Made by a program: the position numbers and the translations under genes
Notes under the pieces: generated by a model
What the model saw: the letters and a program-made list of their open reading frames with translations, nothing else
The model's database searches: none
Told to the model about the DNA's origin: nothing
Shown here: piece after piece, positions 1,712 to 61,043 of the stretch
Numbering within the stretch: position 1 is the stretch's first letter
Layout of the letters: each line of letters starts with the position of its first letter
From: Candidatus Omnitrophica bacterium UBA6215
GTDB lineage: Bacteria; Omnitrophota; Gorgyraeia; Pluralincolimonadales; Pluralincolimonadaceae
NCBI GenBank assembly: GCA_002421665.1
Contig: DISH01000004.1
Coordinates: 87,174 to 151,173 of the forward strand
DNA length: 64,000 nucleotides
Direction: 5' to 3'

Positions 1712-3463
1712 ATGGCCAAATTAATACACGCAAAGATAAATGATATACCGGTTGAGGTAAACGAAGGCACGACCATCCTTGAGGCTGCGAAGAGCGTACA
1801 GATCAAGATACCTACGCTTTGCAAGCACCCGGACCTTCCGCCGTCAGCAAGCTGCGGTATATGTATCGTAAGGGTCAAGGGCTCGAACAAGATGTTGAGG
1901 GCCTGCTGCACGCCGCTCGAGGAGAAGATGGAGATAACCACGCACGACCCCGAGATAGTCGCTATCAGGAAGAGCGTGATAGAACTGATACTTTCGAACC
2001 ACCCGAACGACTGCCTTACCTGCGGCCGCAACGGCAACTGCGAGTTACAGAAGCTGGTGGCTGATTTCGGCATTACCGAGGAATATTTCCCGAAGATAAA
2101 GAGGGACCTTCCTAAAGATGACTCCACCAAGGCGATCATCCTTGAACCGGAGAAATGCATCCTTTGCGGACGCTGCACCTACGTGTGCCAGGACATGCAG
2201 GATGTGTGGGCCCTCTCGTTCCTGCAAAGGGGTATAAAGACCAGGTTCTCCCCCGCGGGAGACATACAACTTTCCGAATCGCCGTGTATAAAGTGCGGCC
2301 AGTGCGCAGCGCACTGCCCGACCGGCGCCATACTTGAGTACTATGATGTCCCGAAGGCATGGGCCGCTCTCCAGAACCCGGACAAATATTGCGTGGTCCA
2401 GATCGCCCCGGCTGTCAGGGCCTCCATAGGCGAAGCGTTCGGCTATCCCGGGAAGAACTTTACCGGTAAGCTTTATTCGCTGCTTCGCAGGCTCGGTTTC
2501 AAGGCCGTCTTCGATACCAACTTCGCGGCGGACGTAACCATAATGGAAGAGGCCAGCGAGTTGAAGGAGAGGCTGTTGGAAGGCAGGAAGCCCCTTCCTC
2601 TTATCACGACCTGCTGCCCGTCGTGGGTAGACTTCATGGAGAAGTTCCACACCGATATGATAGACAATTTCTCCTCGTGCAAGTCGCCCCATGAGATCCT
2701 GGGCGTGCTTTCCAAGACATATTACGCGCAGAAGAACAAAATTGACCCGTCGAAGATCGTCATGGTATCCATCATGCCTTGCACCTCCAAGAAGTATGAG
2801 ATAGGCAGGTGCGATGAGATGCATGCCTCCGGCTACCAGGACGTGGACATAGTCCTTACGACCAGGGAGCTCGCCGGCATGATCAAACAGGCGGGTATAG
2901 ACTTCATCAACCTACCGGACAGCGAGCCGGATTCGATACTCGGCGATTATTCGGGTGCCGCCGTAATATTCGGAGCGACTGGCGGTGTCATGGAAGCCGC
3001 TGTCAGGACCGCGAACTACCTGATCACAGGCAAGGAACTTCCCAAGGTTGACCTCGAAGCCGTAAGGGGCCTTGAGAAGGTCAAGGAAGCCGAACTCGAG
3101 ATAGCCGGAAAGAAGATCCGGGTTGCGGTAGCGCACGGGATGGCGAACGTCGAATACGTACTTAACAAGGTCAGGGAAGCCAAAAAGGCAGGCAAGGAGC
3201 TTCCTTACCACTTCATAGAAGTAATGGCATGCCCCGGCGGTTGCGTCGGCGGCGGCGGCCAGCCCTACATGGTGACCGACGAGGTCCGCATGATGAGGGC
3301 GAAGGTCCTCTACGAGGATGATAAGGGCAAGGCGGAGCGCTGCTCGCACCAGAACCCTTATGTAAAGCAGCTCTACAAGGAGTTCCTTGAAAAGCCGTTG
3401 AGCGAGAAATCGGAAAAACTCTTGCACACGACTTATAAAGGCGTGCCCGTCTACAGAAAATAG
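1712..3463 (+). CDS. hydA: [FeFe]-hydrogenase catalytic subunit (M3-type, N-terminal 2Fe-2S plus accessory FeS domains)
   Basis: All three H-cluster motifs are present: L1 TTCCPSWV, L2 MPCTSKKYE, L3 EVMACPGGCVGGGGQP. There are N-terminal Cys clusters for [2Fe-2S] and [4Fe-4S]. The gene is 583 aa. Confidence 0.9.
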   Translation: MAKLIHAKINDIPVEVNEGTTILEAAKSVQIKIPTLCKHPDLPPSASCGICIVRVKGSNKMLRACCTPLEEKMEITTHDPEIVAIRKSVIELILSNHPNDCLTCGRNGNCELQKLVADFGITEEYFPKIKRDLPKDDSTKAIILEPEKCILCGRCTYVCQDMQDVWALSFLQRGIKTRFSPAGDIQLSESPCIKCGQCAAHCPTGAILEYYDVPKAWAALQNPDKYCVVQIAPAVRASIGEAFGYPGKNFTGKLYSLLRRLGFKAVFDTNFAADVTIMEEASELKERLLEGRKPLPLITTCCPSWVDFMEKFHTDMIDNFSSCKSPHEILGVLSKTYYAQKNKIDPSKIVMVSIMPCTSKKYEIGRCDEMHASGYQDVDIVLTTRELAGMIKQAGIDFINLPDSEPDSILGDYSGAAVIFGATGGVMEAAVRTANYLITGKELPKVDLEAVRGLEKVKEAELEIAGKKIRVAVAHGMANVEYVLNKVREAKKAGKELPYHFIEVMACPGGCVGGGGQPYMVTDEVRMMRAKVLYEDDKGKAERCSHQNPYVKQLYKEFLEKPLSEKSEKLLHTTYKGVPVYRK

Positions 3464-3490
3464 GGGACGTGCCGTTTTGGGACAGGTTAC
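3464..3490 (+). repeat. Dispersed repeat family copy (a): GGGGACGTGCCGTTTTGGGACAGGTTAC
   Basis: It shares the core GGGACGTG..TTTGGGACAGGTTAC with copies at 21362, 25820, 56471, 57193 and 61008. It lies directly after the hydA stop codon. Confidence 0.7.
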
Positions 3491-19410: not shown

Positions 19411-21355
19411 AACATACGCCAAAGGCGAAGCTGAGGTCCGCGCTCTCCGCGAAGTCTCGATCAAAATAGAGGCGGGGGAGTTCGTCGCGATAATGGGCGC
19501 TTCCGGATCGGGCAAGTCCACCCTTATGCACCTTATGGGCCTGCTCGACAGGCCGGATTCCGGGTCCTATATGCTGGGCGGGAAAGATGTCACAGGGCTC
19601 TCCGACGACGAACTTGCCGCCACGCGCAACCGCCTGATAGGTTTCGTATTCCAGCAGTTCCATCTCCTGCCAAGGATGACCGCGCTCGAGAACGTTGAAC
19701 TGCCGCTTATCTATGCCGGCAACCGCCACCTCAAAGACAAAGCATTCGACAAACTCAAGGACGTCGGGCTGGAGAGCCGCACGCGCCACCGGCCGAACGA
19801 AATGTCGGGCGGTCAGCAGCAGCGCGTGGCCGTTGCCAGGGCGTTGGTCAATGACCCGCTCATAATAATGGCTGACGAGCCTACCGGCAACCTCGATTCC
19901 AAGAGCAAGGAAGAGATAATGGCGATCCTCAAGCAGCTCAACGAACAGGGCAAGACGCTCATCATAGTCACACATGAGGACGAGATCTCCCGCTACGCCA
20001 GGAGGGTCATCCGCATGCGCGACGGCGAGATAATTTCCGACGAGCTCAACCGCGCGGAACGGACAGACCGCAAACCCGCGGCGGACGCTAAGCCGGCCGA
20101 TGAAACCCTTAACAAAGCGGAGAAGTTCTCGCGGCGCGCGGAGTTCGTCGACTACATGAGGCAGGCTCTCAGCGCCATGGCGACTCACAAGCTGCGTACT
20201 TTCCTTTCGGTGCTCGGCATACTTATCGGTGTCGCGGCGGTCGTGGCTATGCTCGCGATAGGCCAGGGCGCGCAGGAGACCATATCCAAGCAGTTGTCAT
20301 CGCTCGGCTCGAACCTGCTGCTCATTATGCCTGGGTCTACGCGCCTGCACGGCGTGGCGACGGGTACCGGCGCTTTCACGAGGTTCACCTTCGAGGATAT
20401 CGACGCGATAAAAAAATTGTCCGATGAAGTCAGCCGTGTGTCGGCATCGGTCCAGGGCAAGGGGCAGGTGGTCTACGGGAACAAGAACTGGAATACCACT
20501 GTTGACGGCCAGGGCCTGGATTATCCCGAGATGCGCGCGTCCGTGCCGGACATCGGCAGGTATTTTAACGAGAAGGAGATGAGGTCCAGGGAGAAGGTGG
20601 CGGTCATCGGCAGGACGGTCGTGCGGGAACTTTTCGGCGACGAAAATCCCGTCGGCAAGAATATCAAGATCAACCTGTTGAATTTTAAGGTCATCGGCAT
20701 ATTGCCGGAGAAAGGCGCTTCCGGCTGGCGCGACCAGGACGACACGATAGTCATCCCGGTAACCACCGCGATGTACCGCGTCTTCGGCAAGGATTATATA
20801 GATACCATATCGGTCGAGGTCAAGGAAGCCGGACAGATCGAACAGGCGCAGGAAGATATCAGGAAACTTATAATTAAGCAGCACAGGCTTACCACCAAGG
20901 ACCAGCAGGATTCTTTCCAGATAAGGGATATGTCCGAGTTCAAGAATATGCTCACCTCGACGACGAAGACCATGTCGCTGCTCCTCGGTTCCATCGCGGC
21001 CATATCGCTGCTCGTAGGCGGTATCGGCATCATGAACATCATGCTCGTCTCTGTTACGGAACGCACCCGCGAGATAGGCCTGCGTAAGGCAATAGGGGCG
21101 CGTAATGTGGATATAATGATCCAGTTCCTTATAGAAGCCGCGCTTATAGCTTTCATCGGCGGGATAGCAGGCGTCGTCCTCGGCGCGGGCATATCTTCGC
21201 TGATCGCCGCCGTCGCGGGATGGGCGGTCAAACTTTCCGCTTTCTCCGTAGCTCTCGCGACGGGTTTCTCGCTCGCGATAGGCGTATTGTTTGGAAGCTG
21301 GCCCGCGCACCAGGCCTCCCAGCTCAACCCCATCGAAGCGCTCAGATATGAATAA
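19385..21355 (+). CDS. macB: MacB-type ABC transporter (fused ATPase plus FtsX-like permease)
   Basis: Walker A GASGSGKST, signature LSGGQQQRVAVARAL, Walker B IIMADEP, and a C-terminal four-TM FtsX domain. It is 656 aa. Confidence 0.85.
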   Translation: MIEIRKISKTYAKGEAEVRALREVSIKIEAGEFVAIMGASGSGKSTLMHLMGLLDRPDSGSYMLGGKDVTGLSDDELAATRNRLIGFVFQQFHLLPRMTALENVELPLIYAGNRHLKDKAFDKLKDVGLESRTRHRPNEMSGGQQQRVAVARALVNDPLIIMADEPTGNLDSKSKEEIMAILKQLNEQGKTLIIVTHEDEISRYARRVIRMRDGEIISDELNRAERTDRKPAADAKPADETLNKAEKFSRRAEFVDYMRQALSAMATHKLRTFLSVLGILIGVAAVVAMLAIGQGAQETISKQLSSLGSNLLLIMPGSTRLHGVATGTGAFTRFTFEDIDAIKKLSDEVSRVSASVQGKGQVVYGNKNWNTTVDGQGLDYPEMRASVPDIGRYFNEKEMRSREKVAVIGRTVVRELFGDENPVGKNIKINLLNFKVIGILPEKGASGWRDQDDTIVIPVTTAMYRVFGKDYIDTISVEVKEAGQIEQAQEDIRKLIIKQHRLTTKDQQDSFQIRDMSEFKNMLTSTTKTMSLLLGSIAAISLLVGGIGIMNIMLVSVTERTREIGLRKAIGARNVDIMIQFLIEAALIAFIGGIAGVVLGAGISSLIAAVAGWAVKLSAFSVALATGFSLAIGVLFGSWPAHQASQLNPIEALRYE

Positions 21356-21361
21356 GAATAA

Positions 21362-21420
21362 GGGACGTGTCACTTTGGGACAGGTTACACGGGCGGAGTG
21401 TCCCAAAGTGACACGTCCCC
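21362..21420 (+). repeat. Dispersed repeat family copy (b): inverted dimer forming a 59-bp perfect hairpin
   Basis: GGGACGTGTCACTTTGGGACAGGTTAC, then ACGGGC, then GGAGTGTCCCAAAGTGACACGTCCCC. The arms are reverse complements over about 22 nt. The second arm contains GGAG-N9-GTG. Confidence 0.8.
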
Positions 21421-22631
21421 TTTTGTTCGGGAATACTTTCAGGGCGCTGAAATACCCGAACTTCCGGCTTTTCTTCACGGGCCAGAGCATATCGCTTGTA
21501 GGCACGTGGATGCAGTCGGTGGCGATGAGCTGGCTCGTATACCGCCTGACGGGTTCGGCGCTGCTGCTCGGTGTCGTGGGGTTCGCTTCCCAGATACCCG
21601 TATTCATATTCAGCCCGTTCGCCGGGGTGTTCGCCGACAGGTATAACCGCCACCGCATAGTCGTGGTAACGCAGGCCCTCGCCATGATACAGGCGTTCAT
21701 ACTTGCCGGGCTCACCATTTGGGGAAGGATACAGGTTTGGCAGATACTTTCGCTTGGTTTCTTCCTCGGATGCGTCAACGCCGTAGAGATACCCGCGCGC
21801 CAGGCGTTCCTGATAGACATGGTCGAATCGCGTAAGGACCTTTTGGGAAACGCCATAGCGCTGAACTCCGCGATATTTAATACCGCGCGTTTCATAGGCC
21901 CGACGCTCGCCGGTATCATCGTGGCCATAGTAGGCGAGGGGATATGCTTCCTCGTAAACGCCGTAAGTTTCGTAGCCGTGCTCGTCTGCCTGCTTTTGAT
22001 GAAAATAACGCCCAAAGAGTTCAAGCCGTCGGGTAAACATATCTTCGATGAGCTCAGGGAAGGCCTCGCCTATGCTTTCGGTTCCCGTCCCATACGGATG
22101 ATACTGTTCCTGCTCAGCATCATAAGCATGCTCGGCATGTCTTATATTGTCCTTATGCCGATATTCGCCGCCGAGGTCCATCACGGAGGCTCAAAGATGC
22201 TCGGGTTAATGATGGCGTCGGTCGGCGCAGGAGCTCTTTCCGCGACGCTGTATCTGGCCTCGCGCAGGGAACCGCCCACGCTCGAGAAATTTATCCCGGC
22301 GGCCGCGGCGCTCTTTTCATCGTCGATAATCCTCTTCGCGCTCGCGCGCGCTTTCTGGGTATCTATGCTGCTTTTAGCGGCGACGGGCTTCGGGTTCCTC
22401 CTTACGACCGCCTCGAGCAATACGATAATCCAGACGACGGTCCAGGATGACAAGCGCGGACGCGTGATGGCCTTTTACACGATAGCTTTTCTCGGCATGG
22501 CACCCATCGGAAGCCTCCTGGCGGGCGCCGTGGCCAATAAGATAGGCGCTCCGGACGCCCTCCTGCTCGGCGGGACGCTTTGCCTCTTCGCAACGTTCAT
22601 TTTTTACCGCTTGACACACCCCCGCAACTAA
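21408..22631 (+). CDS. MFS transporter
   Basis: Twelve predicted TM segments. The N-terminal motif is FRALKYPNFRLFFTGQSISLVGTWMQ. The start is placed at GTG 21408 inside the repeat, giving MTRPLLFG. The ORF track extends to 21291, but that N-terminal extension translates the palindromic repeat. Confidence 0.7.
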   Translation: MTRPLLFGNTFRALKYPNFRLFFTGQSISLVGTWMQSVAMSWLVYRLTGSALLLGVVGFASQIPVFIFSPFAGVFADRYNRHRIVVVTQALAMIQAFILAGLTIWGRIQVWQILSLGFFLGCVNAVEIPARQAFLIDMVESRKDLLGNAIALNSAIFNTARFIGPTLAGIIVAIVGEGICFLVNAVSFVAVLVCLLLMKITPKEFKPSGKHIFDELREGLAYAFGSRPIRMILFLLSIISMLGMSYIVLMPIFAAEVHHGGSKMLGLMMASVGAGALSATLYLASRREPPTLEKFIPAAAALFSSSIILFALARAFWVSMLLLAATGFGFLLTTASSNTIIQTTVQDDKRGRVMAFYTIAFLGMAPIGSLLAGAVANKIGAPDALLLGGTLCLFATFIFYRLTHPRN

Positions 22632-25185: not shown

Positions 25186-25817
25186 TGAAAGGACTGGTAA
25201 TAGTTATTGTTATGGCGGCTTTATTCGTATTCGCGCAGCCTAAAGGGATATCGGCCCCTCCCGCGGAACCGGCGCCCGAGACGGCGGCGGAAAGCGTCCC
25301 GCAACAGGCGGCCGCTTCGCAGGAATATAAGATCGGGAACGATGACATCATCGATATAGCCGTCCTGCAGCCCGAACAGTTGGCGCTCACGGTAACGGTA
25401 TCCCCGGACGGGTCGATAACGTTCCCGTATATCGGCAAGGTCGACGTAAAAGGCAAGACCCCTTCCGAGGTGCAGGAGGAGATCCAGACGCGCCTGTCCG
25501 ACGGTTACCTGAAATACCCCGTCGTATCGGTCGCGGTCAAGGAATCGCGCAGCAAGAAATTCTATGTATACGGCGAAGTCCTCAAACCCGGCACGTATTT
25601 TCTCGAGGATAACATGACCGTCCTTAAGGCGATATCGACCGCCGGCGGTTTCACTAAGTACGGATCGTCGAGCCGCGTGAAGGTCCTTCGCCCCAAGACC
25701 GGCGCGGCCGGTTATGAGACCATCAAGGTCAACATGAAGCTTATAATGAACGGTTTATCGAATGATATCGTCCTTGAGCCGGGGGACATAGTACAGGTAG
25801 AAGAAGGCGTATTCTAA
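25185..25817 (+). CDS. Polysaccharide export protein (short Wza/EpsE-like, Poly_export plus SLBB)
   Basis: Signal peptide [18 protein letters not shown]. The sequence [14 protein letters not shown]...[20 protein letters not shown] is typical of the Wza N-terminal domains. The internal ATG at 25185 overlaps the upstream stop. Confidence 0.7.
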
Positions 25818-25819
25818 GC

Positions 25820-25845
25820 GGAGTGTCCCAAAGTGACACGTCCCC
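25820..25845 (+). repeat. Dispersed repeat family copy (c): GGAGTGTCCCAAAGTGACACGTCCCC
   Basis: Identical to the second arm of copy (b). Its GGAG-N9-GTG supplies the SD and GTG start (25833) of the following GT2 gene. Confidence 0.75.
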
Positions 25846-26804
25846 TAATATCCGTTATTGTTCCCGCGTATAACTGCGGGGATGTGCTGGGAAGGGTAAT
25901 CGGCGCTTTAAAGCTCCAGGGTGGTATCGCGGCGCGGGACGTCGAGATAATTGTTATAGATGACGCTTCAACCGACTCCACGTGCGAGATATCCGAAAAT
26001 TTCGCTAAAGACGGTTCGATAAAGTTTTTCAGGAATAAAGAACGCCTCGGTTCCGGGGTTGCCCGGAACAGGGGGATAGACGCCGCGACGGCGCCTTGTT
26101 TGTTGTTCCTTGACGCGGATAACGTTCCCGGAAAAGATTGCCTGGCGGAACATCTTGAATTCCACAAAAGGTTCCCTGGCCCGCAGATAGCGGTACTCGG
26201 AAACCCGCTGCCGCCGGTTGACGTCAAGACGACGCCGCTGATGAGGCTTGATGACGTAGGGCTTGCGTTCAGGGGCCTCAAACACGGCGAGCAGTGCCCG
26301 TGGCAGGATTTTTCCTCTATGAATATCTCGCTTATGAGGTCGTTCCTTGACTCTGCGGGCGAGCGGTTCGACGAGAAGACCTTCGCCAGGACGATAGGTT
26401 TCGAGGATACCGACCTGGGTTTACGGCTTTACAGGAAAGGCCTTAGGATAATATATAACTCTAAGGCGGTCTCATACCATTACCACTTCAGGACGCCGGA
26501 ACAGTTCCTCGAAAAGGTCCGCAGGTACGGCGAGGCGTTCCGTCTCTGGCTTGACGCCGCGGATAAGGACCTGTTGAAGGAGACGGCTTTTATATCGAGG
26601 TTCCTTCCCGAGAAGGGGCCTAAAATTTCGATTCGTTACGCGAGGTACGCCTTACAAAAGGTCTTTATCAACGCCCTTACGATAGACCCGTACCTGGCGC
26701 TGACGAAAAAATTAGAGCGCCGCAGCGAAACTGTAAGCTCATTTTTATATAGACGTTTGTTCAATTATTATTTCCACAAAGGATACTACGGAAGAAAACC
26801 GTAA
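25833..26804 (+). CDS. Family 2 glycosyltransferase
   Basis: GT2 N-terminal motif ISVIVPAYNCGDVL...IIVIDDASTDST. The start is GTG 25833 (MTRPL), encoded by the repeat. Confidence 0.8.
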   Translation: MTRPLISVIVPAYNCGDVLGRVIGALKLQGGIAARDVEIIVIDDASTDSTCEISENFAKDGSIKFFRNKERLGSGVARNRGIDAATAPCLLFLDADNVPGKDCLAEHLEFHKRFPGPQIAVLGNPLPPVDVKTTPLMRLDDVGLAFRGLKHGEQCPWQDFSSMNISLMRSFLDSAGERFDEKTFARTIGFEDTDLGLRLYRKGLRIIYNSKAVSYHYHFRTPEQFLEKVRRYGEAFRLWLDAADKDLLKETAFISRFLPEKGPKISIRYARYALQKVFINALTIDPYLALTKKLERRSETVSSFLYRRLFNYYFHKGYYGRKP

Positions 26805-41397: not shown

Positions 41398-42836
41398 GTT
41401 TAAAGCAGAAGACAATAAAGGGCCTGTTCTGGTCTGGGGCGTCCCAAGCCGGCAAACAGATAAGCCAATTCATCATAACCGCTATTCTCGCGCGTCTCTT
41501 ATCCCCGAACGATTTCGGCCTCCTGGCGATGGCTACGGTATTTATCAACTTCGGGATGATATTCAGCGAGATGGGCATTAGCAGCGCCCTTATCCAGAAG
41601 CAGGATACCCACGACAGGCATTTTTACTCGGCGTTTTGGCTGAATGTTGTTGTCGGCGTGGTTTTAACGCTCATTTTTATCGCTATTTCACCTTTGATCG
41701 CGTGGTTTTACAAGAAGCCGGAACTGCAGATAATATTGACGGTAATATCCGTAAATTATTTCATTTCATCGTTCGTTGTCATCCAACAGACTATTCTTAC
41801 CAAGGAGATGGATTTTAAGAGCCTTGCCATAAGGGATATCATTGCCATTATCCTATCCGGCGGCGTCGGTATCTTCATGGCTTACCATGGTTTTGGGGTT
41901 TGGAGTTTAGTATTTCAATCTGTTGTATTTACGTTATCGAATGCTATATTGTTGTGGACCTTATCATCTTGGCGCCCGAAATTTCAATTTGCAAAATCTG
42001 ACATTAAGGACATATTTAAATTTGGTGCTAATATTACAGGATTTAATATTGTTAATTATTTTGCAAGAAATATCGATCAGCTGTTAATTGGTAAATTTCT
42101 TGGATCACAAGCATTGGGTTATTACTCTCTAGCGTATAAAATTCTATTGTACCCATTGCAATTTATGTCAGGAGTGATTGTAAGAGTGGTATTTCCTGCT
42201 TTTTCTAAGTTACAAAATAACATTGATAAGTTACGAATTTCATATATGAAAATGATAAAATTTCTGTCTTTGATAACATTCCCTATGATATTTGTATTGT
42301 ATGGGATTTCAACAGAGTTTATATTAACTATTTTTGGAAGTAAGTGGGCACCAGTTATTACCTTATTCAAAATATTCGCTTTCTGTGGACCTTTTCAATC
42401 ATTGATAACGGTAAATGGTACGATTTACTTATCAATTGGCAGATCGGATGTACAGTTCAGAATGCAGTTGATAGGGACTTTAGTTACCACTATATGTGTT
42501 ATATTTGGTCTCCAATATGGAGTTGTAGGAGTCGCTTTTGCATATACTATACAGTCAATCTTATATTTACAATATGCTCTATTTGTATCTAGGAGCATGA
42601 TTTGTTTAAAATCAAAGGATTTTTATTCTCTTCTAAAAGCGCCGCTACTAATTAGTAGCATAATTATTATTTTATTGTATATATATAAAATTATCTTTAG
42701 TCATTTCTCTTATCCTCAAATTGTGTATACATCATTACCATTGTGTTTAATAGCGTATATAGTATTGCTGTTCGTTTTTAAGGAAATTGGGGTAAAGAAT
42801 AATAGAATTAAAATACAACTGATAGAGTCTTATTAA
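41394..42836 (+). CDS. Wzx-type flippase, copy 3 (apparently chimeric: GC-rich 5' third, AT-rich 3' two-thirds)
   Basis: The N-terminal Wzx motif LLSPNDFGLLAMATVFINFGMIFSEMGISSALIQ is encoded in GC-rich DNA. Base composition drops sharply near 41880 to about 30% GC within the same reading frame. The protein is 480 aa. Confidence 0.75.
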   Translation: MSLKQKTIKGLFWSGASQAGKQISQFIITAILARLLSPNDFGLLAMATVFINFGMIFSEMGISSALIQKQDTHDRHFYSAFWLNVVVGVVLTLIFIAISPLIAWFYKKPELQIILTVISVNYFISSFVVIQQTILTKEMDFKSLAIRDIIAIILSGGVGIFMAYHGFGVWSLVFQSVVFTLSNAILLWTLSSWRPKFQFAKSDIKDIFKFGANITGFNIVNYFARNIDQLLIGKFLGSQALGYYSLAYKILLYPLQFMSGVIVRVVFPAFSKLQNNIDKLRISYMKMIKFLSLITFPMIFVLYGISTEFILTIFGSKWAPVITLFKIFAFCGPFQSLITVNGTIYLSIGRSDVQFRMQLIGTLVTTICVIFGLQYGVVGVAFAYTIQSILYLQYALFVSRSMICLKSKDFYSLLKAPLLISSIIIILLYIYKIIFSHFSYPQIVYTSLPLCLIAYIVLLFVFKEIGVKNNRIKIQLIESY

Positions 42837-42837
42837 T

Positions 42838-43944
42838 ATGAATTCAACTAAATTATGCGAATATATAATTAATTTAACTAACGATAGTATAATAAAACAA
42901 AATCGGGATGGGAGCATGCCCGCCGGTCACAATGGGCCTTGGAATAATATAGATACTCCGGTTAGAAATACGGCTCATTGGGCAATAACATTTTGCGAAA
43001 TATACAAATTGACTAAAGATAATAGATTTTTGGAGGCTGCATTTAAGGCTGCAGAGTATTTACTATCGAAACAGGCACGGCCAGGCGGAGTAGCTTATTT
43101 ATGCCGCATTGATGAAAATAAGAATTTTTCAAATGGCTTAATTGGACAAGCATGGGCAATCGAATCCTTATCACTTTTATATAAGTGCTTAGGTATCGAA
43201 AAGTGCAGGATTGTGGCCGAAGAGGTATTTATTAGCCATCCTTTTAACTATAAATTGGGTCTTTGGAATGCCATAGATATTTATGGAGAACCTCTCCCAG
43301 TTCATCGCACTTATAATCAACAATTATGGTTTGCCCTTTCTGGCATACTATTATTAAGTAGCGGTATAAATAATGAGTTGATTAAGGAAAGAGTGGGTAT
43401 TTACCTTTCAAATCTAGTTCAGCATACATATTTAGAGAAGGACGGTGTAATTAACCATCGAATATGGTTTACAGATAAACACGCAGATTTAAAACGGAAA
43501 ATAAAGGGAACATTAACAGATATCTCCTTGCGTTTAGATAAAAATTATTCAGAGATTTCAGCTGGTTACCATTCTTTTAATTTATATGCTTACGGGATGA
43601 TAAAAAAGTATTATTCCGGATACGTTAGTTTTTTTGATTCAAATATATTTAGACAAGTTAAGAGCAACTGTCTAAACAATAACTATCTGAGTTTATTAAA
43701 TACAAACAAATTTGCTTTTAAGTATAATCCAACTGGTTTTGAAATAGCATATTTTTGTGAAATGTTCGAGTTAAATAAGAACGGCAACGAGATTATGGCA
43801 AAAGATTTATTAGAAAAACAGCTTTGTTTTTATAATGATAAAATTGTTAGTTCAAATATTGATTACGATACCTTGTTTGCTAGAATTTATGAAGCAACTC
43901 GATTAAATGAATTTAATCTGCAATATATTAATGGTGAGTCATGA
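42838..43944 (+). CDS. Hypothetical protein in the low-GC cassette (possible alpha/alpha-toroid glycan-modifying enzyme)
   Basis: A 368-aa protein. The segment GHNGPWNNIDTPVRNTAHWAITF ... GLIGQAWAIESL is reminiscent of (alpha/alpha)6-barrel enzymes such as AGE, LanC-like or unsaturated glycosyl hydrolases. The family cannot be resolved by eye. Confidence 0.4.
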   Translation: MNSTKLCEYIINLTNDSIIKQNRDGSMPAGHNGPWNNIDTPVRNTAHWAITFCEIYKLTKDNRFLEAAFKAAEYLLSKQARPGGVAYLCRIDENKNFSNGLIGQAWAIESLSLLYKCLGIEKCRIVAEEVFISHPFNYKLGLWNAIDIYGEPLPVHRTYNQQLWFALSGILLLSSGINNELIKERVGIYLSNLVQHTYLEKDGVINHRIWFTDKHADLKRKIKGTLTDISLRLDKNYSEISAGYHSFNLYAYGMIKKYYSGYVSFFDSNIFRQVKSNCLNNNYLSLLNTNKFAFKYNPTGFEIAYFCEMFELNKNGNEIMAKDLLEKQLCFYNDKIVSSNIDYDTLFARIYEATRLNEFNLQYINGES

Positions 43945-44843
43945 AAAAGGATCTTCCGTTAATAAGTGTTATTATGCCTGCCTATAATGCGGAAGAAACA
44001 ATTGAGAAGGCAATATTATCGTTACTAAATTTAAACTATCCAAAAGAAAGAATCGAATTATTAATCGTAGATAATAATTCTAGCGATTCTACTGTAGATA
44101 TAATTGGCAAATATCCGGTGACATTGCTTCAAGAATGCGAAAAACAAAGTTCCTACGCAGCAAGAAATTTAGGTGTTAAAGTTGCAAAAGGAGAGATATA
44201 TGCTTTTACAGATGCTGACTGTATTGTTGATGTAAATTGGGTTATGATGGGTATCGAAGCTTTACAGAAAGCCGATTTAGTCGGAGGCAAAGTTGAATTT
44301 ATATATTCTGAGAAAAAAACGTCATCAGAAATGTATGATTCGCTAATTAGTATGGATAACGAGTTGTATATATTGAGCTCTAAGGGAGCTACAACGGCCA
44401 ACTTATTTGTTAAATCCAGTATTTTTTCTAAAATTGGTTTATTTGACGATACTGTCGTTTCTGGTGGAGACATGGAGTGGACGATAAGAGCTAGCAACTC
44501 AGGATATAAAATAGAATATTCCAACGCTGTTATAATAAGGCATCCGTCCAGAAAGTTTAAAGATTTGATGGCCAAAGGTTTTAGAGTTGGGACGGGATTT
44601 ATTAACATATGGCGTAAAAGCGGTCTATCGAGTAAACAGATATTAAGTAATATTTTTAGATTGTGCATACCGACGAGGCCCTATTATATAAGGAAGATGG
44701 TAAAAAGGCGCGGGACAACAGATATGTACAATAAAATAGCTCAGGTATGGTTAGTAGCATATTTGAGCAAATTGTCCCGAATCACAGGGATATTATTTTC
44801 ACTTGTTTCCAGAAGGAATAAAAATTGTTTGGGCCTAAAATGA
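43941..44843 (+). CDS. Family 2 glycosyltransferase (low-GC cassette)
   Basis: LISVIMPAYNAEETIEKAILSLLNLNYPKERIELLIVDNNSSDST. DAD motif (FTDADC). Confidence 0.8.
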   Translation: MKKDLPLISVIMPAYNAEETIEKAILSLLNLNYPKERIELLIVDNNSSDSTVDIIGKYPVTLLQECEKQSSYAARNLGVKVAKGEIYAFTDADCIVDVNWVMMGIEALQKADLVGGKVEFIYSEKKTSSEMYDSLISMDNELYILSSKGATTANLFVKSSIFSKIGLFDDTVVSGGDMEWTIRASNSGYKIEYSNAVIIRHPSRKFKDLMAKGFRVGTGFINIWRKSGLSSKQILSNIFRLCIPTRPYYIRKMVKRRGTTDMYNKIAQVWLVAYLSKLSRITGILFSLVSRRNKNCLGLK

Positions 44844-46228
44844 AAATATTACTAACAGTTTTAATAGCTTCAATAGCATTTTTAGCGGTAATATTCTTTC
44901 CAAAATATTTGTTGTATATATCAGGCTTATTGCTATTTGGTTGGTATGCAATATCGCCTGATTTAAAAAAGCTCGCCATTCTTACAATAGCCGTTACTGC
45001 GTTAATTTCACAGGGTTTATCAGAATACGTGCTTTCAATTAGACTGCTCGGATTCAATATTCATATTATTGAAATTATGATCGTTGTTATTTGGGCTGGT
45101 TGTTTTATAGCTGCATTGCGCGTAAAAGAGCAAATAAATGAGTTTCCAAAAGAATATTATTTTATGATTGTGTTTTATTTCATTGTTTTTATTTCAATAT
45201 TTAGAGGTGCTGATTATTCAATCAGCCATTCATTTTCTGCTTCTAGAGAGTTATTTTATTATTCCGTAGCTTTTATCGCATTTATTAAAATTAAAAAAAT
45301 GGAAGATGCCAAATTTGTTTTAAATGCTTTTTACTTAGGTATAATTTTATATTCAATAGAATTAATATCTGTCTATATTTGGAAGGGAAATCCTCTAAGA
45401 GAATTTATTAACCAGCAAGGTATATGGGGAGCGGGAAGAATTTCGTTCAGGAACCACCAATTATTACTTATATCTTTATCAGTTAGTTTTGCGATGTTTG
45501 GACTGAAGAAATATTCAAATAGATTTTTGAATATGGCAATATTTTTTATCAGTCTGATTTTTATAACGCTTGGAGAAAGTAGAATACTATTACTATGTGC
45601 AATTACATCTATAATAGCCGTATTTGTTTTATCGTTAATTAAAAGAAACTCAAATATTGATGTATCTAAATATTTTATTTTGTTTGCGGTTATTCTATCA
45701 ATAACTGTTTCCAGTCTAACATTATTGTTCTATGGAGATGCCGGAACTAAAGGAATTCCGTACGAGCTTAAGCAGAGGATTTCTAGTGTAAATAAGTTAA
45801 ACTTGGATAGCTCTTATAAGTTTAGGGAGCAGCAGTGGTTTAGAGAAATTAACAAAATAAGGAATTATTTGTGGTTCGGACAGGGTACAAAAGCATTCTA
45901 TAATGAGTTTGATCAAGACAATTTTGAAAATATATATTGGGATAATACCAATACTTTATTTATTAGAAAAGTCGGTTTGTTGGGTTATATTTTTATTTTA
46001 CTATTTTGTTTTTGTATATTTTATAAATTAATATATATCTATGTAACTTCTAGAGATCCATATATTTTGGCTATCACCATTGGTTTATTATCTATTATCC
46101 CTGGTTTTGTCATAAGGTTATTTACTTCTCCTTTTATGATTCAGCATAAAGGTATAGTTATATATGCAATATTGATGGGGTTGGTGCAACGAGTTTACTT
46201 AATAACGAAGTATGGCAAAATCAGTTGA
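44825..46228 (+). CDS. Wzy-like polymerase / O-antigen-ligase-like polytopic membrane protein (low-GC cassette)
   Basis: A 467-aa protein with 10 or more TM segments and a large loop containing ITLGESRILLL. This is a typical Wzy architecture. Confidence 0.6.
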   Translation: MFGPKMKILLTVLIASIAFLAVIFFPKYLLYISGLLLFGWYAISPDLKKLAILTIAVTALISQGLSEYVLSIRLLGFNIHIIEIMIVVIWAGCFIAALRVKEQINEFPKEYYFMIVFYFIVFISIFRGADYSISHSFSASRELFYYSVAFIAFIKIKKMEDAKFVLNAFYLGIILYSIELISVYIWKGNPLREFINQQGIWGAGRISFRNHQLLLISLSVSFAMFGLKKYSNRFLNMAIFFISLIFITLGESRILLLCAITSIIAVFVLSLIKRNSNIDVSKYFILFAVILSITVSSLTLLFYGDAGTKGIPYELKQRISSVNKLNLDSSYKFREQQWFREINKIRNYLWFGQGTKAFYNEFDQDNFENIYWDNTNTLFIRKVGLLGYIFILLFCFCIFYKLIYIYVTSRDPYILAITIGLLSIIPGFVIRLFTSPFMIQHKGIVIYAILMGLVQRVYLITKYGKIS

Positions 46229-46237
46229 TAGGTCATA

Positions 46238-47419
46238 ATGAAAATTTTGTATATAAACGAATGCATAAATAGAATTGATGGAAGTTCTGTTCATGCGAGA
46301 AGCATTATTAGGGAACTGCAGAATAAAGGAATAGTATTATTAACAATCCCAAACAAAAAAATTCTGAATCGTACATTTGAGCCAGGAGGTACATATAGAC
46401 TTGAATTATCTTTACCGGTTTTATATCGGGAAATTCTAGTGTTTTTAAAAAGTGTGTTGAAATGTATATACAACATAGCCCTCGTTTCATTTAAAATACC
46501 TATATTTAAACCAGATATAATAATGATTAGAACGGTTCCTTATGATTTTTTACCTCTATTTCTTAATTTTGTTGGGGTCAGAAAAATAATTTTGGAGGTT
46601 AATGCGCCTCATTATATAGAAAGAGAGATGTATTATAAAATTCAATACGATAAAAGCGTTCATTTAAGTTTAATGAAAAAAATTGAAATTGTATCGTGGA
46701 AATCCGTTGATGCTTTATATGTTGTGTCAAATGAACTGAAGGAAATGATTGAACATGAGGTTGGGTCTTGTAATCCGATCATAGAGGTTATCCCCAATGG
46801 TTCAGATCAAATTAATATAGTTGATGTTAAAGTAAATTGTGATATTGTAAAAATAGGATATTCAGGGAGTTTTCATAAATGGCATGGGGTTGAATTATTA
46901 GTAGAGGTTGCCAGAAAAATTCTTAAAGAATCGGATCGTATTGAATTTTATCTAATAGGAGACGGCGAAAATAAAAAGGCAATAGAGAATATTGTAAATA
47001 ACGATAGCTTATTAAAGGATAAAATTAAATTTACTGGATATTTAACACAAAAAGAAGTTTTGGACATCATGGTTACTATGGATATTTTAGTTGCACCATA
47101 TTTAAACATGGAAAAATTCTATTTTTCTCCGATTAAAATTATGGAATATATGGCCTGCGGTAGAGCCATTATAGCTTCGAGAGTTGGGCAAATTTCCCAA
47201 ATTATTCAAGATGGGGTAGATGGAGTACTAATTCCTCCAGGTTCTAGAGACGACCTAGTGATAGCAATTAAAACATTGGTTACGAATCCTGAATATAGGT
47301 TGAGTTTAGGGAGAATGGCATTAGAGAAATCAAAAGAACATACTTGGGAAACAGTTGCATCAAAAATATTATTGCTTACAAATAAAATAAATGAAAAAAA
47401 TAATAATATACAACGATAG
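46238..47419 (+). CDS. Family 4 (GT-B) glycosyltransferase
   Basis: C-terminal E-X7-E motif region SPIKIMEYMACGRAIIASRVGQISQIIQDGVDGVL. 393 aa. Confidence 0.8.
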   Translation: MKILYINECINRIDGSSVHARSIIRELQNKGIVLLTIPNKKILNRTFEPGGTYRLELSLPVLYREILVFLKSVLKCIYNIALVSFKIPIFKPDIIMIRTVPYDFLPLFLNFVGVRKIILEVNAPHYIEREMYYKIQYDKSVHLSLMKKIEIVSWKSVDALYVVSNELKEMIEHEVGSCNPIIEVIPNGSDQINIVDVKVNCDIVKIGYSGSFHKWHGVELLVEVARKILKESDRIEFYLIGDGENKKAIENIVNNDSLLKDKIKFTGYLTQKEVLDIMVTMDILVAPYLNMEKFYFSPIKIMEYMACGRAIIASRVGQISQIIQDGVDGVLIPPGSRDDLVIAIKTLVTNPEYRLSLGRMALEKSKEHTWETVASKILLLTNKINEKNNNIQR

Positions 47420-48488
47420 TAAAATCTTCGGCGGACATGAAGTAATGTCTGCCGAAATTGCTAATGAATTGTCAGAGAAATACACTATTTGGTATGTTAG
47501 TTATAGCCGAGATATAGAAAGCCATTTGAATAATTCAATCAAATTTGTAAAAACAAACGTTAAATCATGTTTAACAATATTCGGTTTGGGTAGTTACAGT
47601 ATCTTTGACATAGTTAAGTTATACATATTATTTAAACGAATACAACCAGATTTAGTTATAATTTGTCAAGGTACTATTGAAGTGGGTCTTAAGGGAATGT
47701 GGGCATCAAAACTCTGTAGATATAAAACAATCAGCTATATTCCATTATGCTACAGTTTTAGTGAAATTAAATCTTTTATGGGATGCTGGAGGGATATCAT
47801 AGCTAGTTACTATTATAGGGTTTTTGATGCGATTATTACTATTTCTGGGGAACAAAAAGAGCTTCTTTCTCATAGAGTGGATAAAAAGGTATATATTTTA
47901 AACAATGCTGTCGACGGTAAATGTGATAATGGATATCTGTCTCCACTTAAAAAAGATGAACCGGTGGTTATCGGTATCATAGGTCGAATATCATTTGTTC
48001 AAAAAGGTCAAAATAAAATAATTGGCATAGCAAACAAGGTTAAGAGTCTTAAAATTAATGTTATATTTAGAATTATAGGTGACGGTGAAGATGCTGATAA
48101 TATGAGAGCAAGTATACGCGCGAATGGATTAGACAAAATGATTTATGTTGATAATTGGGAAAAGGATAGGCGGATATTATATAAAGGAATCAATATTGTA
48201 CTTATAACATCAAACTATGAAGGCGTCCCATTAGTTATGCTTGAATCGATACTATTTGGTAAATATGTAATAGCGCCAAATATGGGGATATTCAAAGAAT
48301 ATTTGGATAAGGATTTCTTGTATAATTCTATTAATGATGCTGCGGGAATTATATGCAGAGTAATTGAAAATTATAATGAGTATAGGTATAAATTTGATAA
48401 ATCATATAGGTTGGTTATAGAAAATAATAACAGAGAAACTTTTAGAAGCAATTTATTTAGCATTATTGATGAAATAACATCAAATTAG
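47391..48488 (+). CDS. Family 4 (GT-B) glycosyltransferase
   Basis: EGVPLVMLESILFGKYVIAPNMG motif. 365 aa. Confidence 0.75.
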   Translation: MKKIIIYNDSKIFGGHEVMSAEIANELSEKYTIWYVSYSRDIESHLNNSIKFVKTNVKSCLTIFGLGSYSIFDIVKLYILFKRIQPDLVIICQGTIEVGLKGMWASKLCRYKTISYIPLCYSFSEIKSFMGCWRDIIASYYYRVFDAIITISGEQKELLSHRVDKKVYILNNAVDGKCDNGYLSPLKKDEPVVIGIIGRISFVQKGQNKIIGIANKVKSLKINVIFRIIGDGEDADNMRASIRANGLDKMIYVDNWEKDRRILYKGINIVLITSNYEGVPLVMLESILFGKYVIAPNMGIFKEYLDKDFLYNSINDAAGIICRVIENYNEYRYKFDKSYRLVIENNNRETFRSNLFSIIDEITSN

Positions 48489-48490
48489 AT

Positions 48491-49600
48491 ATGAAAATTA
48501 TCCATATAGTAAGACAATTTTACCCATGTATTGGCGGAGTTGAAAATTATATTTACAATTTGTCGAAAACACAGCTTGCGGCTGGGAACGATGTTACGGT
48601 TTTAACTCTAAACAAGAATCTTTGCACTAAAGAGGATCTCTCTGATAACGAAATAATAGAAGGAATTAAGATTAAGAGGATACCATTTACGGGCAGCAAA
48701 AGATATCCAATCGCTTTATCGAGCGTTACTAATTTAGACGGTTGTGACATTGTTAACATTCATTGTGTTGATTCTTTTATTGATTATCTAGGAATTTTAA
48801 AACCGTTTCATAAAAAACGAATTATTCTTAGCACACACGGAGGTTATTTCCATACAAAATGGCTTAAAATCCTTAAGCAGGTATATTTTTATACGGTCAC
48901 AAGAATAATTTTGTATAGTTGTGACAAAATTATAGCAAACAGTAATAGTGATCATATTTTATTTAAAAAAATCAGTAATAATGTAGTAAGAGTTGATAAT
49001 GGCGTGGAAGTAGAAGCATTTAGTTCAGTTAGCAAGAATATAGAGTTCGGTTATCTTTTATACATTGGTAGATTGGATTCCCACAAGCGTATTGATAATT
49101 TAGTCCGTACGATCCCTTTTTTGCTAAAAAAGAATATTAATGTTAAATTGGGAATCATAGGACCAGATTGGAATGATACAAGGAAGGGGTTAGAACATAT
49201 AGCCAAGGGTTTAGGTATTAAAAATTCAATAAATTTTATGGGGAGCTTGAGCAGGGATAATCTGCTTAATGAGTTGTCTAAAGCTCATTTGTTTGTTTCC
49301 GCATCTGAATATGAAGGATTTGGAATTTCAGCGATTGAAGCAATGGCTTCTGGAACACCCTGTGTTTTAAATGATATTGCGTCATTCAGGGATTTCATTG
49401 CTACTTCAAAAGCTGGTGCGCTTGTCAATTTCAATGATCATGAACAAGCTGCGCGGGCCATATCGAATATTATATGCATGGATAAAATTAACTATGATCT
49501 AATGGCATTAAATGCTAAAAAGAAGGCAAAAGAATATTCCTGGGAAACGGTTGGTAAGGCGGTGATGAAAGTATATGAGGATGTTTTATATCAAAAATGA
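48491..49600 (+). CDS. Family 4 (GT-B) glycosyltransferase
   Basis: EGFGISAIEAMASGTPCVLNDIASFRDFI motif. 369 aa. Confidence 0.8.
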   Translation: MKIIHIVRQFYPCIGGVENYIYNLSKTQLAAGNDVTVLTLNKNLCTKEDLSDNEIIEGIKIKRIPFTGSKRYPIALSSVTNLDGCDIVNIHCVDSFIDYLGILKPFHKKRIILSTHGGYFHTKWLKILKQVYFYTVTRIILYSCDKIIANSNSDHILFKKISNNVVRVDNGVEVEAFSSVSKNIEFGYLLYIGRLDSHKRIDNLVRTIPFLLKKNINVKLGIIGPDWNDTRKGLEHIAKGLGIKNSINFMGSLSRDNLLNELSKAHLFVSASEYEGFGISAIEAMASGTPCVLNDIASFRDFIATSKAGALVNFNDHEQAARAISNIICMDKINYDLMALNAKKKAKEYSWETVGKAVMKVYEDVLYQK

Positions 49601-50334
49601 TACTATTCGGAATTGAATATGAAAATATCAGTAAGGCTGTTGCTTTGGAGAAAATATTCGGCCTGCTAAGCACTTCTTCTAAATCATCCGTCTATTTCTT
49701 AAATGCAGATTGTCTCAATATTTCTCTTAGGGATGGGCAGTATAGAGATATTCTTAAATCAGCAAGTTTAGTATTGCCCGATGGAATTGGACTTAAAATT
49801 GCTACTAAAATATTTGGCGGTAAGATGGAAGAAGATTGTAATGGGACAGACCTCAGCCCTTTGATAATGGGAAAAGCAGCAAAGGATGAATATAGAATTT
49901 ATTTGCTGGGGGGAAGAGAGGGAGTAGCTGAAAAGGCCGCCAAAAATATTAGTAAACAGATCGCGGGTATTAAAATCGTAGGCACTAATTCAGGTTATTT
50001 TAGCGAAGACAGCGAAATAATTAGTGATATTAATAATTCAGGGGCTGATATTCTTTTTGTTGCGATGGGTGTGCCATTACAGGAAAAATGGATTGCTAAA
50101 CACAGACAAGATCTGAATCCTCGTTTATGTTTGGGGGTTGGAGCCCTTTTTGATTATCTTTCAGGAAGGATACCGCGCGCGCCGATATTTATGCGTAAAA
50201 TTCATCTTGAGTGGTTGTGGCGGATATTTATAGAACCCAAGAGGATGTTCAAAAGGTATATTATCGAAGGCGCAAAATTATTCTGGTGCATTTTGAAGTA
50301 TAGACTTACTGCAAAGTGTTCTGAATTAAAATAG
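49597..50334 (+). CDS. WecB/TagA/CpsF-family glycosyltransferase (GT26, UDP-ManNAc/ManNAcA transferase-like)
   Basis: LPDGIGL...YLLGGREGVAEKAAKNI...KIVGTNSGYF...ILFVAMGVPLQEKWI matches the WecG/TagA family. 245 aa. Confidence 0.8.
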   Translation: MILFGIEYENISKAVALEKIFGLLSTSSKSSVYFLNADCLNISLRDGQYRDILKSASLVLPDGIGLKIATKIFGGKMEEDCNGTDLSPLIMGKAAKDEYRIYLLGGREGVAEKAAKNISKQIAGIKIVGTNSGYFSEDSEIISDINNSGADILFVAMGVPLQEKWIAKHRQDLNPRLCLGVGALFDYLSGRIPRAPIFMRKIHLEWLWRIFIEPKRMFKRYIIEGAKLFWCILKYRLTAKCSELK

Positions 50335-53210: not shown

Positions 53211-53321
53211 TATCACAATGCATTGATGTGCACCCGCCTGTTAAAATTCCAATGACGGAATAGGTTTTTTGGTACAGATATGTCTTGTAATTTCACTGCC
53301 TTACAAAACAGGAGCAGCAAG

Positions 53322-53810
53322 ATGTTGAAGTCATTTATTACTTTAGCCGCGGTAATGGTGTTTTTGTTCTCTTTTAACGCCGCCCGCGCCGATTTCGAGG
53401 TGCACATAGTTGATTCTCTCGGCGAGAACGTGAATTTTCGTGACGGGGATACTTTTCAGTTGAGCGAGACCCCGTATTTGTATTTCAATGTGCCGGATTT
53501 CAATCCCGCGTGGCAATATATAACCTTTACCGGTTCTTACTGGCAGGACCCGGAGAATGCTTTAACCGCTACTTTACCGGTAAGCCCGAATAGCGACGGC
53601 GATGTTTGGGTAACTCTTGATTGGGATTCGATATCAAAGACCGCGGGTTTGTGGAATGTTTCAGGCTGGTACGCGGCGCCAAGCGGCGCTGTGGGGAGCG
53701 ATTCAACCACTTTCAGTTATGCCGCTGTCCCGGAACCCGTGGCTATGGTGTTGTTCATAACCGGAGGTTCGGTATTGATGGCTCGCAGGATGAGAAGGGG
53801 CAGGAAATAA
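53322..53810 (+). CDS. PEP-CTERM sorting-domain secreted protein 1
   Basis: An AGGAG RBS precedes the ATG at 53322. Signal peptide MLKSFITLAAVMVFLFSFNAARA. C-terminus AAVPEPVAMVLFITGGSVLMARRMRRGRK. Confidence 0.8.
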   Translation: MLKSFITLAAVMVFLFSFNAARADFEVHIVDSLGENVNFRDGDTFQLSETPYLYFNVPDFNPAWQYITFTGSYWQDPENALTATLPVSPNSDGDVWVTLDWDSISKTAGLWNVSGWYAAPSGAVGSDSTTFSYAAVPEPVAMVLFITGGSVLMARRMRRGRK

Positions 53811-54511: not shown

Positions 54512-54514
54512 AAA

Positions 54515-55222: not shown

Positions 55223-55259
55223 ATTTCGGGCGAGAGAAAACAATTAGGGGGATGGGAAG

Positions 55260-56513: not shown

Positions 56514-56526
56514 TTTGGGACGGACC
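56471..56526 (+). repeat. Dispersed repeat family copy (d), degenerate tandem: GGGGACGTGCCGCTTTGGGACGTGCCC...TTTTGGGACGGACC
   Basis: It shares GGGGACGTGCCG(C/T)TTTGGGAC with copy (a), followed by further GGGAC units. It lies at the exosortase/EpsI junction. Confidence 0.6.
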
Positions 56527-61011: not shown

Positions 61012-61034
61012 CCTGTCCCTAAGTGACACGTCCC
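61008..61034 (+). repeat. Dispersed repeat family copy (f): GTAACCTGTCCCTAAGTGACACGTCCC
   Basis: Same orientation and sequence as copy (e). It overlaps the stop codon of the upstream gene and lies just upstream of the tRNA promoter. Confidence 0.7.
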
Positions 61035-61043
61035 TAAAATATA

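Follow-up and report, generated by a model that had tools for sequence, protein, structure and literature searches.

The stretch of 64,000 nucleotides analysed here (the window) belongs to Candidatus Omnitrophica bacterium UBA6215 (contig DISH01000004.1, positions 87,174 to 151,173 of the forward strand) and carries a short interspersed repeat, copies of which lie at the junction between a MacB gene and a major facilitator superfamily (MFS) transporter gene and at the junction between a Wza-like gene and a family 2 glycosyltransferase (GT2) gene. A 26-mer, GGAGTGTCCCAAAGTGACACGTCCCC, occurs exactly at 21395-21420 and 25820-25845 on the plus strand, where none is expected from 100 dinucleotide-preserving shuffles of the window. 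Each copy contains GGAG (21395-21398 and 25820-25823) followed after a 9 nt spacer by GTG (21408 and 25833), and both GTG codons are in frame with the gene downstream, as an original prediction made from the sequence had stated: GTG 21408 with a 407 aa open reading frame (ORF), MTRPLLFGNTFRALKYPNFRLFF, that matches Pfam MFS_3, and GTG 25833 with a 323 aa ORF, MTRPLISVIVPAYN, that matches Pfam Glycos_transf_2. The prediction went further and regarded the repeat as a mobile element that supplies a portable Shine-Dalgarno (SD) sequence and start codon to both genes. As set out below, the repeat is a repetitive extragenic palindromic (REP) element; its GTG very probably starts the GT2 gene, and for the MFS gene an ancestral ATG upstream of the repeat is, on balance, favoured. 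All start assignments derive from sequence comparison, with related genomes sampled as fragments of metagenome-assembled genomes (MAGs) that are referred to by L numbers.

A 21 nt core of the repeat, TGTCCCWAAGTGACACGTCCC, is present in seven copies in the window when up to three mismatches are allowed, with none expected by chance; the copies are located at 3464, 21362 and 56472 on the minus strand and at 21399, 25824, 57199 and 61014 on the plus strand. The core is preceded by GCGGAG only in the two copies named in the original prediction, by GTAACC in four and by AGGGCA in one, GTAACC being the opposite side of the loop of the short inverted doublets described below.

The GT2 gene (25833-26804, plus strand) provides the clearest case of a gene that starts within the repeat. 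The Wza-like gene ends with TAA at 25815-25817 and a single REP copy of the GCGGAG type (25818-25846, plus strand; GTG 25833-25835) begins directly after it. No start codon is present in frame between the Wza stop and GTG 25833, and this GTG is the only canonical start ahead of the Glycos_transf_2 domain (domain start at residue 7). The next ATG, GTG or TTG is GTG 25884, and its use would cost the first 17 residues including SVIVPAYN. A REP occupies the Wza-GT2 junction in five species (the window, L019, L051, L055 and L056) and is in frame in all of them; counted from the REP start, the Ser codon follows after 18, 18, 18, 24 and 33 nt, all multiples of three. In the window, in L055 (81% GT2 identity to the window) and in L056 (69%) there is no ATG, GTG or TTG other than the REP GTG from the in-frame stop up to the conserved SV(I/V)IPAYN strand. 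The ortholog in L019 (71%) has an extra ATG six codons downstream, and in L051 (68%) the REP codon reads TTG and is followed by a duplicated half-REP with an ATG, ATGACACGTCCCC, giving MTRPLFSVIIPAYN. Six orthologs have an empty junction (L058, L059, L060, L061, L066 and L067), and these have a TTG, GTG or ATG of their own at, or at most 15 nt from, the Wza stop. Comparison with relatives, including those that lack the repeat as had been suggested as a check, supports the repeat-borne GGAG and GTG as the GT2 start. Since the native start is lost and the GT2 gene is intact in three species that have no other canonical start, the REP appears to have been co-opted by this gene. In a quick neighbour-joining tree of the GT2 protein alone, which is not robust, the REP-bearing orthologs are not monophyletic (the window groups with L055, L051 with L056, and L019 lies beside the REP-free L066), which would imply that the REP was either gained at this site several times or lost several times.

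The start codon of the repeat has itself changed in some lineages. Among 468 kb of related Omnitrophota loci the start position of NTGACACGTCCC is G in 80 cases, T in 7 and A in 3. All three ATG variants open long genes in frame, namely GT2 in L051 and the MFS gene in L059 and L064, as against about 10% of the GTG copies. An independent case of a REP GTG at a gene start is found in L013, where a dCache-HAMP-GGDEF protein has no start before its transmembrane (TM) helix other than that of the REP that follows a transposase stop codon. SD sequences are used at 14 of 38 gene starts in the window compared to a background of 12%, and the good examples read AAGGAGG. Taken together, the comparison makes it very probable that GTG 25833, with the REP GGAG acting as its SD sequence, is the functional start of the GT2 gene. 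The presence of ATA 25848 and ATT 25857 as rare non-canonical start candidates counts against this assignment. If the REP were inert and neither GTG were used, the GT2 gene would start non-canonically, or be poorly expressed or decaying, and the MFS gene would start at ATG 21348. Such a coincidence would fit with the fact that most REP copies are unused, that frame 0 is met by chance in one of three cases and that the MFS gene has a good alternative start. It is nevertheless very improbable: the GT2 gene is intact and conserved in three species without any other canonical start, its frame is held across indels of +6 and +15 nt, and the ATG variants are found only at in-frame gene starts.

The MacB-MFS junction is occupied by an inverted REP pair, or REPIN (REP doublet forming hairpins), at 21354-21427 on the plus strand, which constitutes a 66 nt in-frame insertion relative to REP-free orthologs. 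The left copy (21362-21388, minus strand) is of the GTAACC type and starts 6 nt past the MacB stop, and the right copy (21393-21421, plus strand) is of the GCGGAG type and holds GGAG 21395-21398 and GTG 21408-21410. The two arms form a perfect 21 bp stem (21362-21382 with 21399-21419) around a 16 nt loop (21383-21398, GGTTACACGGGCGGAG), and the RNA of the region 21330-21450 is predicted to fold with -57.2 kcal/mol (z = -7.3). The MFS_3 transporter gene (21348-22631, plus strand) can be read from ATG 21348, giving 427 aa with the REPIN translated as NKGRVTLGQVTRAECPKVTRPL, or from GTG 21408, giving 407 aa. The former ATG (21348-21350), contained in TATGAATAA, is the ancestral MFS start codon and overlaps with the end of the MacB gene (stop codon 21353-21355). 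Its reading frame is open across the whole REPIN and joins that of the MFS gene; the product would begin MNKNKGRVTLGQVTRAECPKVTRPLLFGNTFRALKY.

Orthologous junctions illustrate a range of states comprising an empty site in L019 and L058, the full REPIN in the window, a single REP in L064 and remnants in L059, L051, L065 and L062. In L019 and L058 the MFS gene starts at the ATG of TATGAATAA, the sole possible start in L019, and the same ATG is also found in L065, L062 and L051. Most MFS homologs in the databases begin with MN..., as a start at the ATG of TATGAATAA would give. The closest relatives retain a REP remnant (..CGTCCCC) in the frame of the ancestral ATG, the resulting N-termini being MNNRARSFPLENTF in L062 (87% identity), MNKARPLSFENTF in L065 and MNKARPQMF in L051. 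That the REP can be read as protein in this lineage follows from the copy at 57199, which is in frame within an exosortase gene. GTG 21408 is paired in the middle of the 21 bp stem and, being locked there, would at best be a minor internal start.

Several observations weigh against initiation at ATG 21348. In L064 and L059 a TGA closes the ancestral frame and a REP-derived ATG must start the MFS gene (MTRPQVTRPHIFRSLEY and MTRPHMFRALQF), with GCGGAG 9 nt upstream of this ATG in L064; GTG 21408 is for this reason a real possibility in the window as well. The GGAG of the window copy is unpaired, at the 3' end of the hairpin loop. Moreover, ATG 21348 is also fixed by the C-terminal codons of MacB (..Y E stop), and the chance that it stays in frame across the REPIN is about one in three. 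The conservation of ATG 21348 was discounted as proof of its use, as the same bases encode the MacB C-terminus, so that only the frame argument counts in its favour. On balance ATG 21348 appears the more plausible start of the MFS gene, GTG 21408 is a lesser candidate, and there is a small remaining probability that both, or some other start, are used. For the MFS gene the original prediction is thus upheld in so far as GTG 21408 is in frame, and its use as the start is doubtful with the ancestral ATG intact and the GTG in a stem; the ortholog comparison goes partly against it, given that the REP-free L019 and L058 and most homologs start at the ancestral ATG.

In its full form the original prediction holds that both genes start at the GTG of the repeat, that both proteins share M-T-R-P and that the repeat is a portable module of SD sequence and start codon. 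This has in its favour the GGAG-N9-GTG in frame for both genes, the public gene calls P0001 and P0017, which pick the REP GTG codons (VTRPL), the lack of another canonical start for GT2, the REP-derived ATG required in L064 and L059, and the position of GGAG in the REPIN loop. Set against these are the pairing of GTG 21408 in a perfect 21 bp stem within a region of -57 kcal/mol, the intact and in-frame coupled ATG 21348, the reading of REP remnants from the ancestral ATG in the closest relatives L062 and L065, and a survey of 83 REP copies, described below, in which no frame is preferred and the majority of copies do not act as starts. The full form is therefore possible but rather unlikely. 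The associated claim that ORF callers over-extend these genes through the repeat is true of a mechanical ORF list, in which the MFS gene runs from TTG 21291, but not of P0001 and P0017.

The doublet at 21354-21427 could alternatively act mainly as an RNA hairpin, such as an attenuator or terminator, a stabiliser of the mRNA or a device that makes MFS translation dependent on MacB, a role that is compatible with a REP origin. The hairpin is very stable, as the z-score illustrates, begins at the MacB stop and is followed by UUUUGUU. Classical REPs stabilise upstream mRNA and can lower translation when they are near a stop codon, which also lends some weight to such a role. Yet the U-rich tail belongs to the coding sequence and is shared by REPIN-free relatives, the orthologs function without a hairpin, and the repeat is found in unrelated contexts (hydrogenase, tRNA, IspG, NuoH and Fmt). 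An intrinsic terminator at the REPIN was rejected because a terminator scan made no call, the scan having missed the hairpin owing to its 16 nt loop. A principal function as an RNA hairpin hence seems improbable. An Rfam search of the window at the gathering threshold returned tRNAs only, the REPIN region giving only sub-threshold matches to generic hairpins (miRNA precursors), and a known RNA family was rejected in the absence of any meaningful match at gathering and E-value thresholds.

The repeat is a REP, and its inverted doublet a REPIN, of the non-autonomous kind that is mobilised by a REP-associated tyrosine transposase (RAYT), and it is widespread in Candidatus Omnitrophota. This bears out the claim that the repeat is an element of mobile type. 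When one genome per species was scanned, the exact 21-mer turned up at 49 loci in 18 MAG assemblies, 17 of which are labelled Omnitrophota or uncultured Planctomycetia and one Gammaproteobacteria. The latter contig, L027 (MGXQ01000038.1), carries two REP copies, which may reflect mis-binning or transfer of the element. More than 80 REP copies are present in the 468 kb of related loci. The family has the consensus (G/A)(T/C)GGAG-TGTCCCWAAGTGACACGTCCCC, with (G/A)(T/C)GGAG as the dominant form; the GTG of the REP overlaps a TGA, and in the T variant a TAA precedes the GTG. In the MAG JAHJHP01 at least 10 loci have inverted doublets whose copies start 71-73 nt apart, and a 37 nt doublet form is present in L031 and L035. 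At one locus shared by the latter two species (L031 897-954 and L035 157-214) the flanks and arms are alike and the 16 nt loop (GGTTAC..GCGGAG) is inverted, as expected from recombination between inverted REPIN arms. Filled and empty sites at the orthologous MacB-MFS and Wza-GT2 junctions are likewise as expected for a mobile element.

The link to a transposase comes from inverted REP copies 690-730 nt apart that enclose a 196 aa ORF in L020 (6725 minus and 7412 plus), L026 (6845 minus and 7569 plus), L041 and L042; in L013 a copy is present on one side. The ORF matches Pfam Y1_Tnp with 60.7 bits (cutoff 23) and NCBIfam REP_Tyr_transpos with 77.7 bits, slightly below the cutoff of 80. A profile of four of these RAYT proteins finds Escherichia coli TnpAREP (4er8) as the best match in the PDB (E = 8e-4), above the IS608 TnpA, and this required the four-sequence profile, a single sequence giving no match in the PDB. 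H60-F-H62, the invariant Y120 and N124 of the RAYT align with H59/H61, Y115 and N119 of TnpAREP. Two features speak against this classification. A tblastn search with the RAYT gave no hit in the window, so that the link between REP and transposase rests on the related genomes. Furthermore, a single REP can form only a 5 bp stem (GTGTC/GACAC) and its fold is no better than that of shuffles (z = -0.46), which is unlike classical REPs. The copies at 56472 and 57199 have RAYT-like spacing, and a RAYT between them was rejected as Pfam identifies exosortase and EpsI there.

The REP unit is built as a 15 nt direct sub-repeat (GTCCC-N10-GTCCC; ..GACACGTCCCC), and its inner flanks are GTGGAG/GCGGAG or GTAACC, with no GTAG at the REP. 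The sub-repeat sometimes occurs as three tandem units or as isolated half-copies (L001, L042, L051, L064 and 56472-56526 in the window), and lone half-copies (ATGACACGTCCCC) occur at gene starts. The 21-mer is kept identical across genomes whose RAYTs share only 58% identity. A direct repeat could also hint at a regulator binding site of the polysaccharide/PEP-CTERM gene cluster, or at a DNA uptake sequence, and five of the seven window copies (21362, 21399, 25824, 56472 and 57199) do lie within or beside exopolysaccharide (EPS) or PEP-CTERM genes. But across the 18 MAG assemblies the gene contexts are many and unrelated, inverted pairs flank RAYT genes, doublets have fixed spacing, and copies are far sparser (about 1 per 9 kb in the window) than uptake sequences (about 1 per kb). 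An EPS-specific operator or a DNA uptake sequence was rejected on the diversity of gene contexts and the RAYT association, and can be regarded as extremely unlikely.

The survey of ORFs and frames at 83 REP copies does not support the repeat as a general portable SD sequence and start codon. The ORF from the internal GTG has a median of 19 codons and most copies are non-coding. ORFs of 150 aa or longer were found 12 times in the GTG frame as opposed to 7 times in the other open frame, several of them being antisense artefacts. Among curated real genes that start at most 100 nt downstream, frames 0, 1 and 2 are represented at about 6:4:4, and most downstream genes have their own SD sequence and ATG 30-60 nt further on (e.g. 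AAGGAGGTAAGATG in L002). A general portable-start property was therefore rejected for want of frame enrichment. In 17 of the 83 copies an in-frame stop follows after 4-5 codons (MTRPL stop or MTRPQ stop) as the outer flank is usually C(T/A)ATAG, TGA or TAA; these early stops could reflect a target-site preference or selection against read-out translation. A minority of copies supply both ribosome-binding site (RBS) and start codon in frame, namely those at GT2 in five species, at the MFS gene in L064 and L059, and at the GGDEF gene in L013, with IspG in L039 as a possible further REP-started gene. The repeat is thus best described as an occasional co-option where a copy sits in frame in a very short junction, rather than as carrying a family-wide property.

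Based on these comparisons the following course of events is proposed. The consensus holds GGAG, a 9 nt spacer and GTG, and any sense-oriented copy therefore amounts to a latent translation-initiation site. Most copies would remain extragenic and unused. Where a copy inserts directly after the stop codon of tightly coupled genes the native start may be displaced or destroyed, and in-frame copies would survive as the SD sequence and GTG of the repeat restore translation. Later mutation could then improve the start or erase a redundant native one; by comparison, the native start is lost in three GT2 lineages. At GT2 the REP would lie between the Wza stop and the first β-strand, with initiation at GTG 25833 directed by the REP GGAG. 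At the MFS gene a complete REPIN of 66 nt may have inserted in frame immediately past the ancestral ATG, leaving coupled re-initiation at ATGAATAA (ATG 21348) in place, and the ribosome would read through the hairpin, lengthening the cytoplasmic N-terminus by about 20 basic residues. This account as a whole, combining the REP/REPIN identity with a GT2 start at the REP GTG and an MFS start at ATG 21348, seems probable.

A more far-reaching possibility is that the REP has been shaped as an operon-junction cassette that packs stops in two frames, an SD sequence and a start codon into about 26 nt. This is speculative and unlikely on present comparisons, but if true, insertions would end the upstream gene and restart the downstream one, which would help REPINs to spread and persist in compact genomes; a set of proteins would carry an M-T-R-P tag, and the recurrent occupation of the Wza-GT2 junction in non-sister lineages would represent repeated, selected, in-frame insertion. 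There are also practical consequences. Gene callers truncate or mis-start REP-adjacent genes in Omnitrophota MAGs, as exemplified by the calls P0002 and P0018 in close relatives, which are truncated and lack conserved segments at the N-terminus. Peptides of REP origin (MTRP..., GDVSLRD...) will also show up as spurious conserved motifs in unrelated proteins.

The remaining copies in the window are found in diverse settings. A copy of the GTAACC type with three mismatches (3459-3490, minus strand) lies directly after the stop codon of an Fe-hydrogenase gene, and the same junction is occupied in L002. Two degenerate tandem copies on the minus strand (56472-56492 and about 56501-56526) span the exosortase stop and the EpsI start. 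These two genes overlap by ATGA at 56510-56513, inside a degenerate REP whose GTG is replaced by ATG. The N-terminus of EpsI (DUF3485), MTCPVRARPKAARPL, and the exosortase C-terminus ..SVPK seem to derive from the REP; the ending ..SVPK is shared by several exosortase orthologs. The exosortase ORF itself (56510-57367, minus strand; Pfam Exosortase_EpsH) contains the copy at 57193-57221 (plus strand), translated in frame as GDVSLRDRLL. This segment sits in a variable loop after the first TM helix; several exosortase orthologs have decayed versions of it (GDVS.., GDVP.. and GDVF..) and others are without it. The last copy, of the GTAACC type (61008-61036, plus strand), overlaps the stop codon of ORF 60226-61011 and is just upstream of a promoter-like TTGACC-N17-TAAAAT, which is followed by tRNA-Lys(ctt), tRNA-Leu(tag) and tRNA-Gly(gcc). 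The same order of REP and TTGACC...TAAAAT is present in another species (L012 2322-2350).

Two neighbouring features concern the polysaccharide gene region in general. A low-GC island at about 42000-50300, with a tail to about 53000, has 31% GC compared to about 54% elsewhere and holds AT-rich repeats (families D3 and D6); it was probably acquired horizontally. Beside the exosortase/EpsI pair, four tandem genes at 53280-55844 have a C-terminal VPEP (repeat family D1), which looks like a PEP-CTERM sorting signal.

The Omnitrophota element most closely resembles the REP/REPIN-RAYT systems, i.e. the BIME/TnpAREP of E. coli and the GI-GIII repeats of Pseudomonas fluorescens. Common features include a short and mostly intergenic repeat, inverted doublets with long hairpins and fixed spacing, and inverted copies that flank a transposase gene whose HUH and Tyr motifs align to TnpAREP. 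The GI REPINs are 71 bp long, in agreement with the spacing in JAHJHP01 (PMC3116915). The Omnitrophota unit differs in that it is barely palindromic, being organised as the 15 nt direct sub-repeat, and unlike the E. coli REP it has no GTAG guide. It also differs in the identity of the 21-mer despite the divergence of the RAYTs, and in the occurrence of copies in frame within coding sequences and at start codons. A search of a paper library found no paper that links REPINs or RAYTs with the supply of start codons, and none that links Omnitrophota with REPINs or RAYTs. A REP/RAYT system is thereby documented in a candidate phylum where the library search gave no description of one. Whether REPINs are selfish passengers or beneficial long-term residents is under debate, and the case here represents a concrete, sequence-traceable benefit, in which a REP inserted between two coupled genes and the downstream gene has apparently lost its own start and now depends on that of the repeat, with the GTG upgraded to ATG in some lineages.

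The original prediction considered it unusual for a repeat to supply the RBS and start codon of a gene, but there are precedents for this. The Neisseria REP2 and the Borrelia plasmid inverted repeat (IR) are interspersed repeats located immediately upstream of genes that provide the RBS and the initiation codon (PMC3184786). Both of these include a promoter as well and typically serve as 5' gene modules, whereas at the REP described here a promoter scan found only weak 9/12 sigma-70-like matches (GTGACA-N17/18-...) within the range of shuffles. Unlike REP2 and IR only a minority of the Omnitrophota copies are starts, and as the element belongs to a RAYT-type REP family no sequence homology to REP2 or IR is to be expected. 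The Rickettsia palindromic elements, the miniature inverted-repeat transposable elements (MITEs) of enterobacteria and Anabaena and the pneumococcal BOX and RUP elements are repeats that have become in-frame parts of ORFs, where variable loops or termini accommodate them (PMC3184786). The translated REP in the exosortase loop, and possibly those in the MFS and EpsI N-termini, are similar in this respect, but the element is of a different family, and its main interest is the replacement of a start codon rather than internal insertion. Finally, the element is comparable to insertion sequence (IS) elements with outward-facing signals, where a mobile element lends expression signals to the neighbouring gene; the symmetry of the REPIN doublet even allows GGAG-N9-GTG to face outward at both ends. 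In contrast to IS elements, the signal is not a promoter but a translational one, composed of an SD sequence and a start codon, and it is carried by an element of about 30-120 nt that has no gene of its own.

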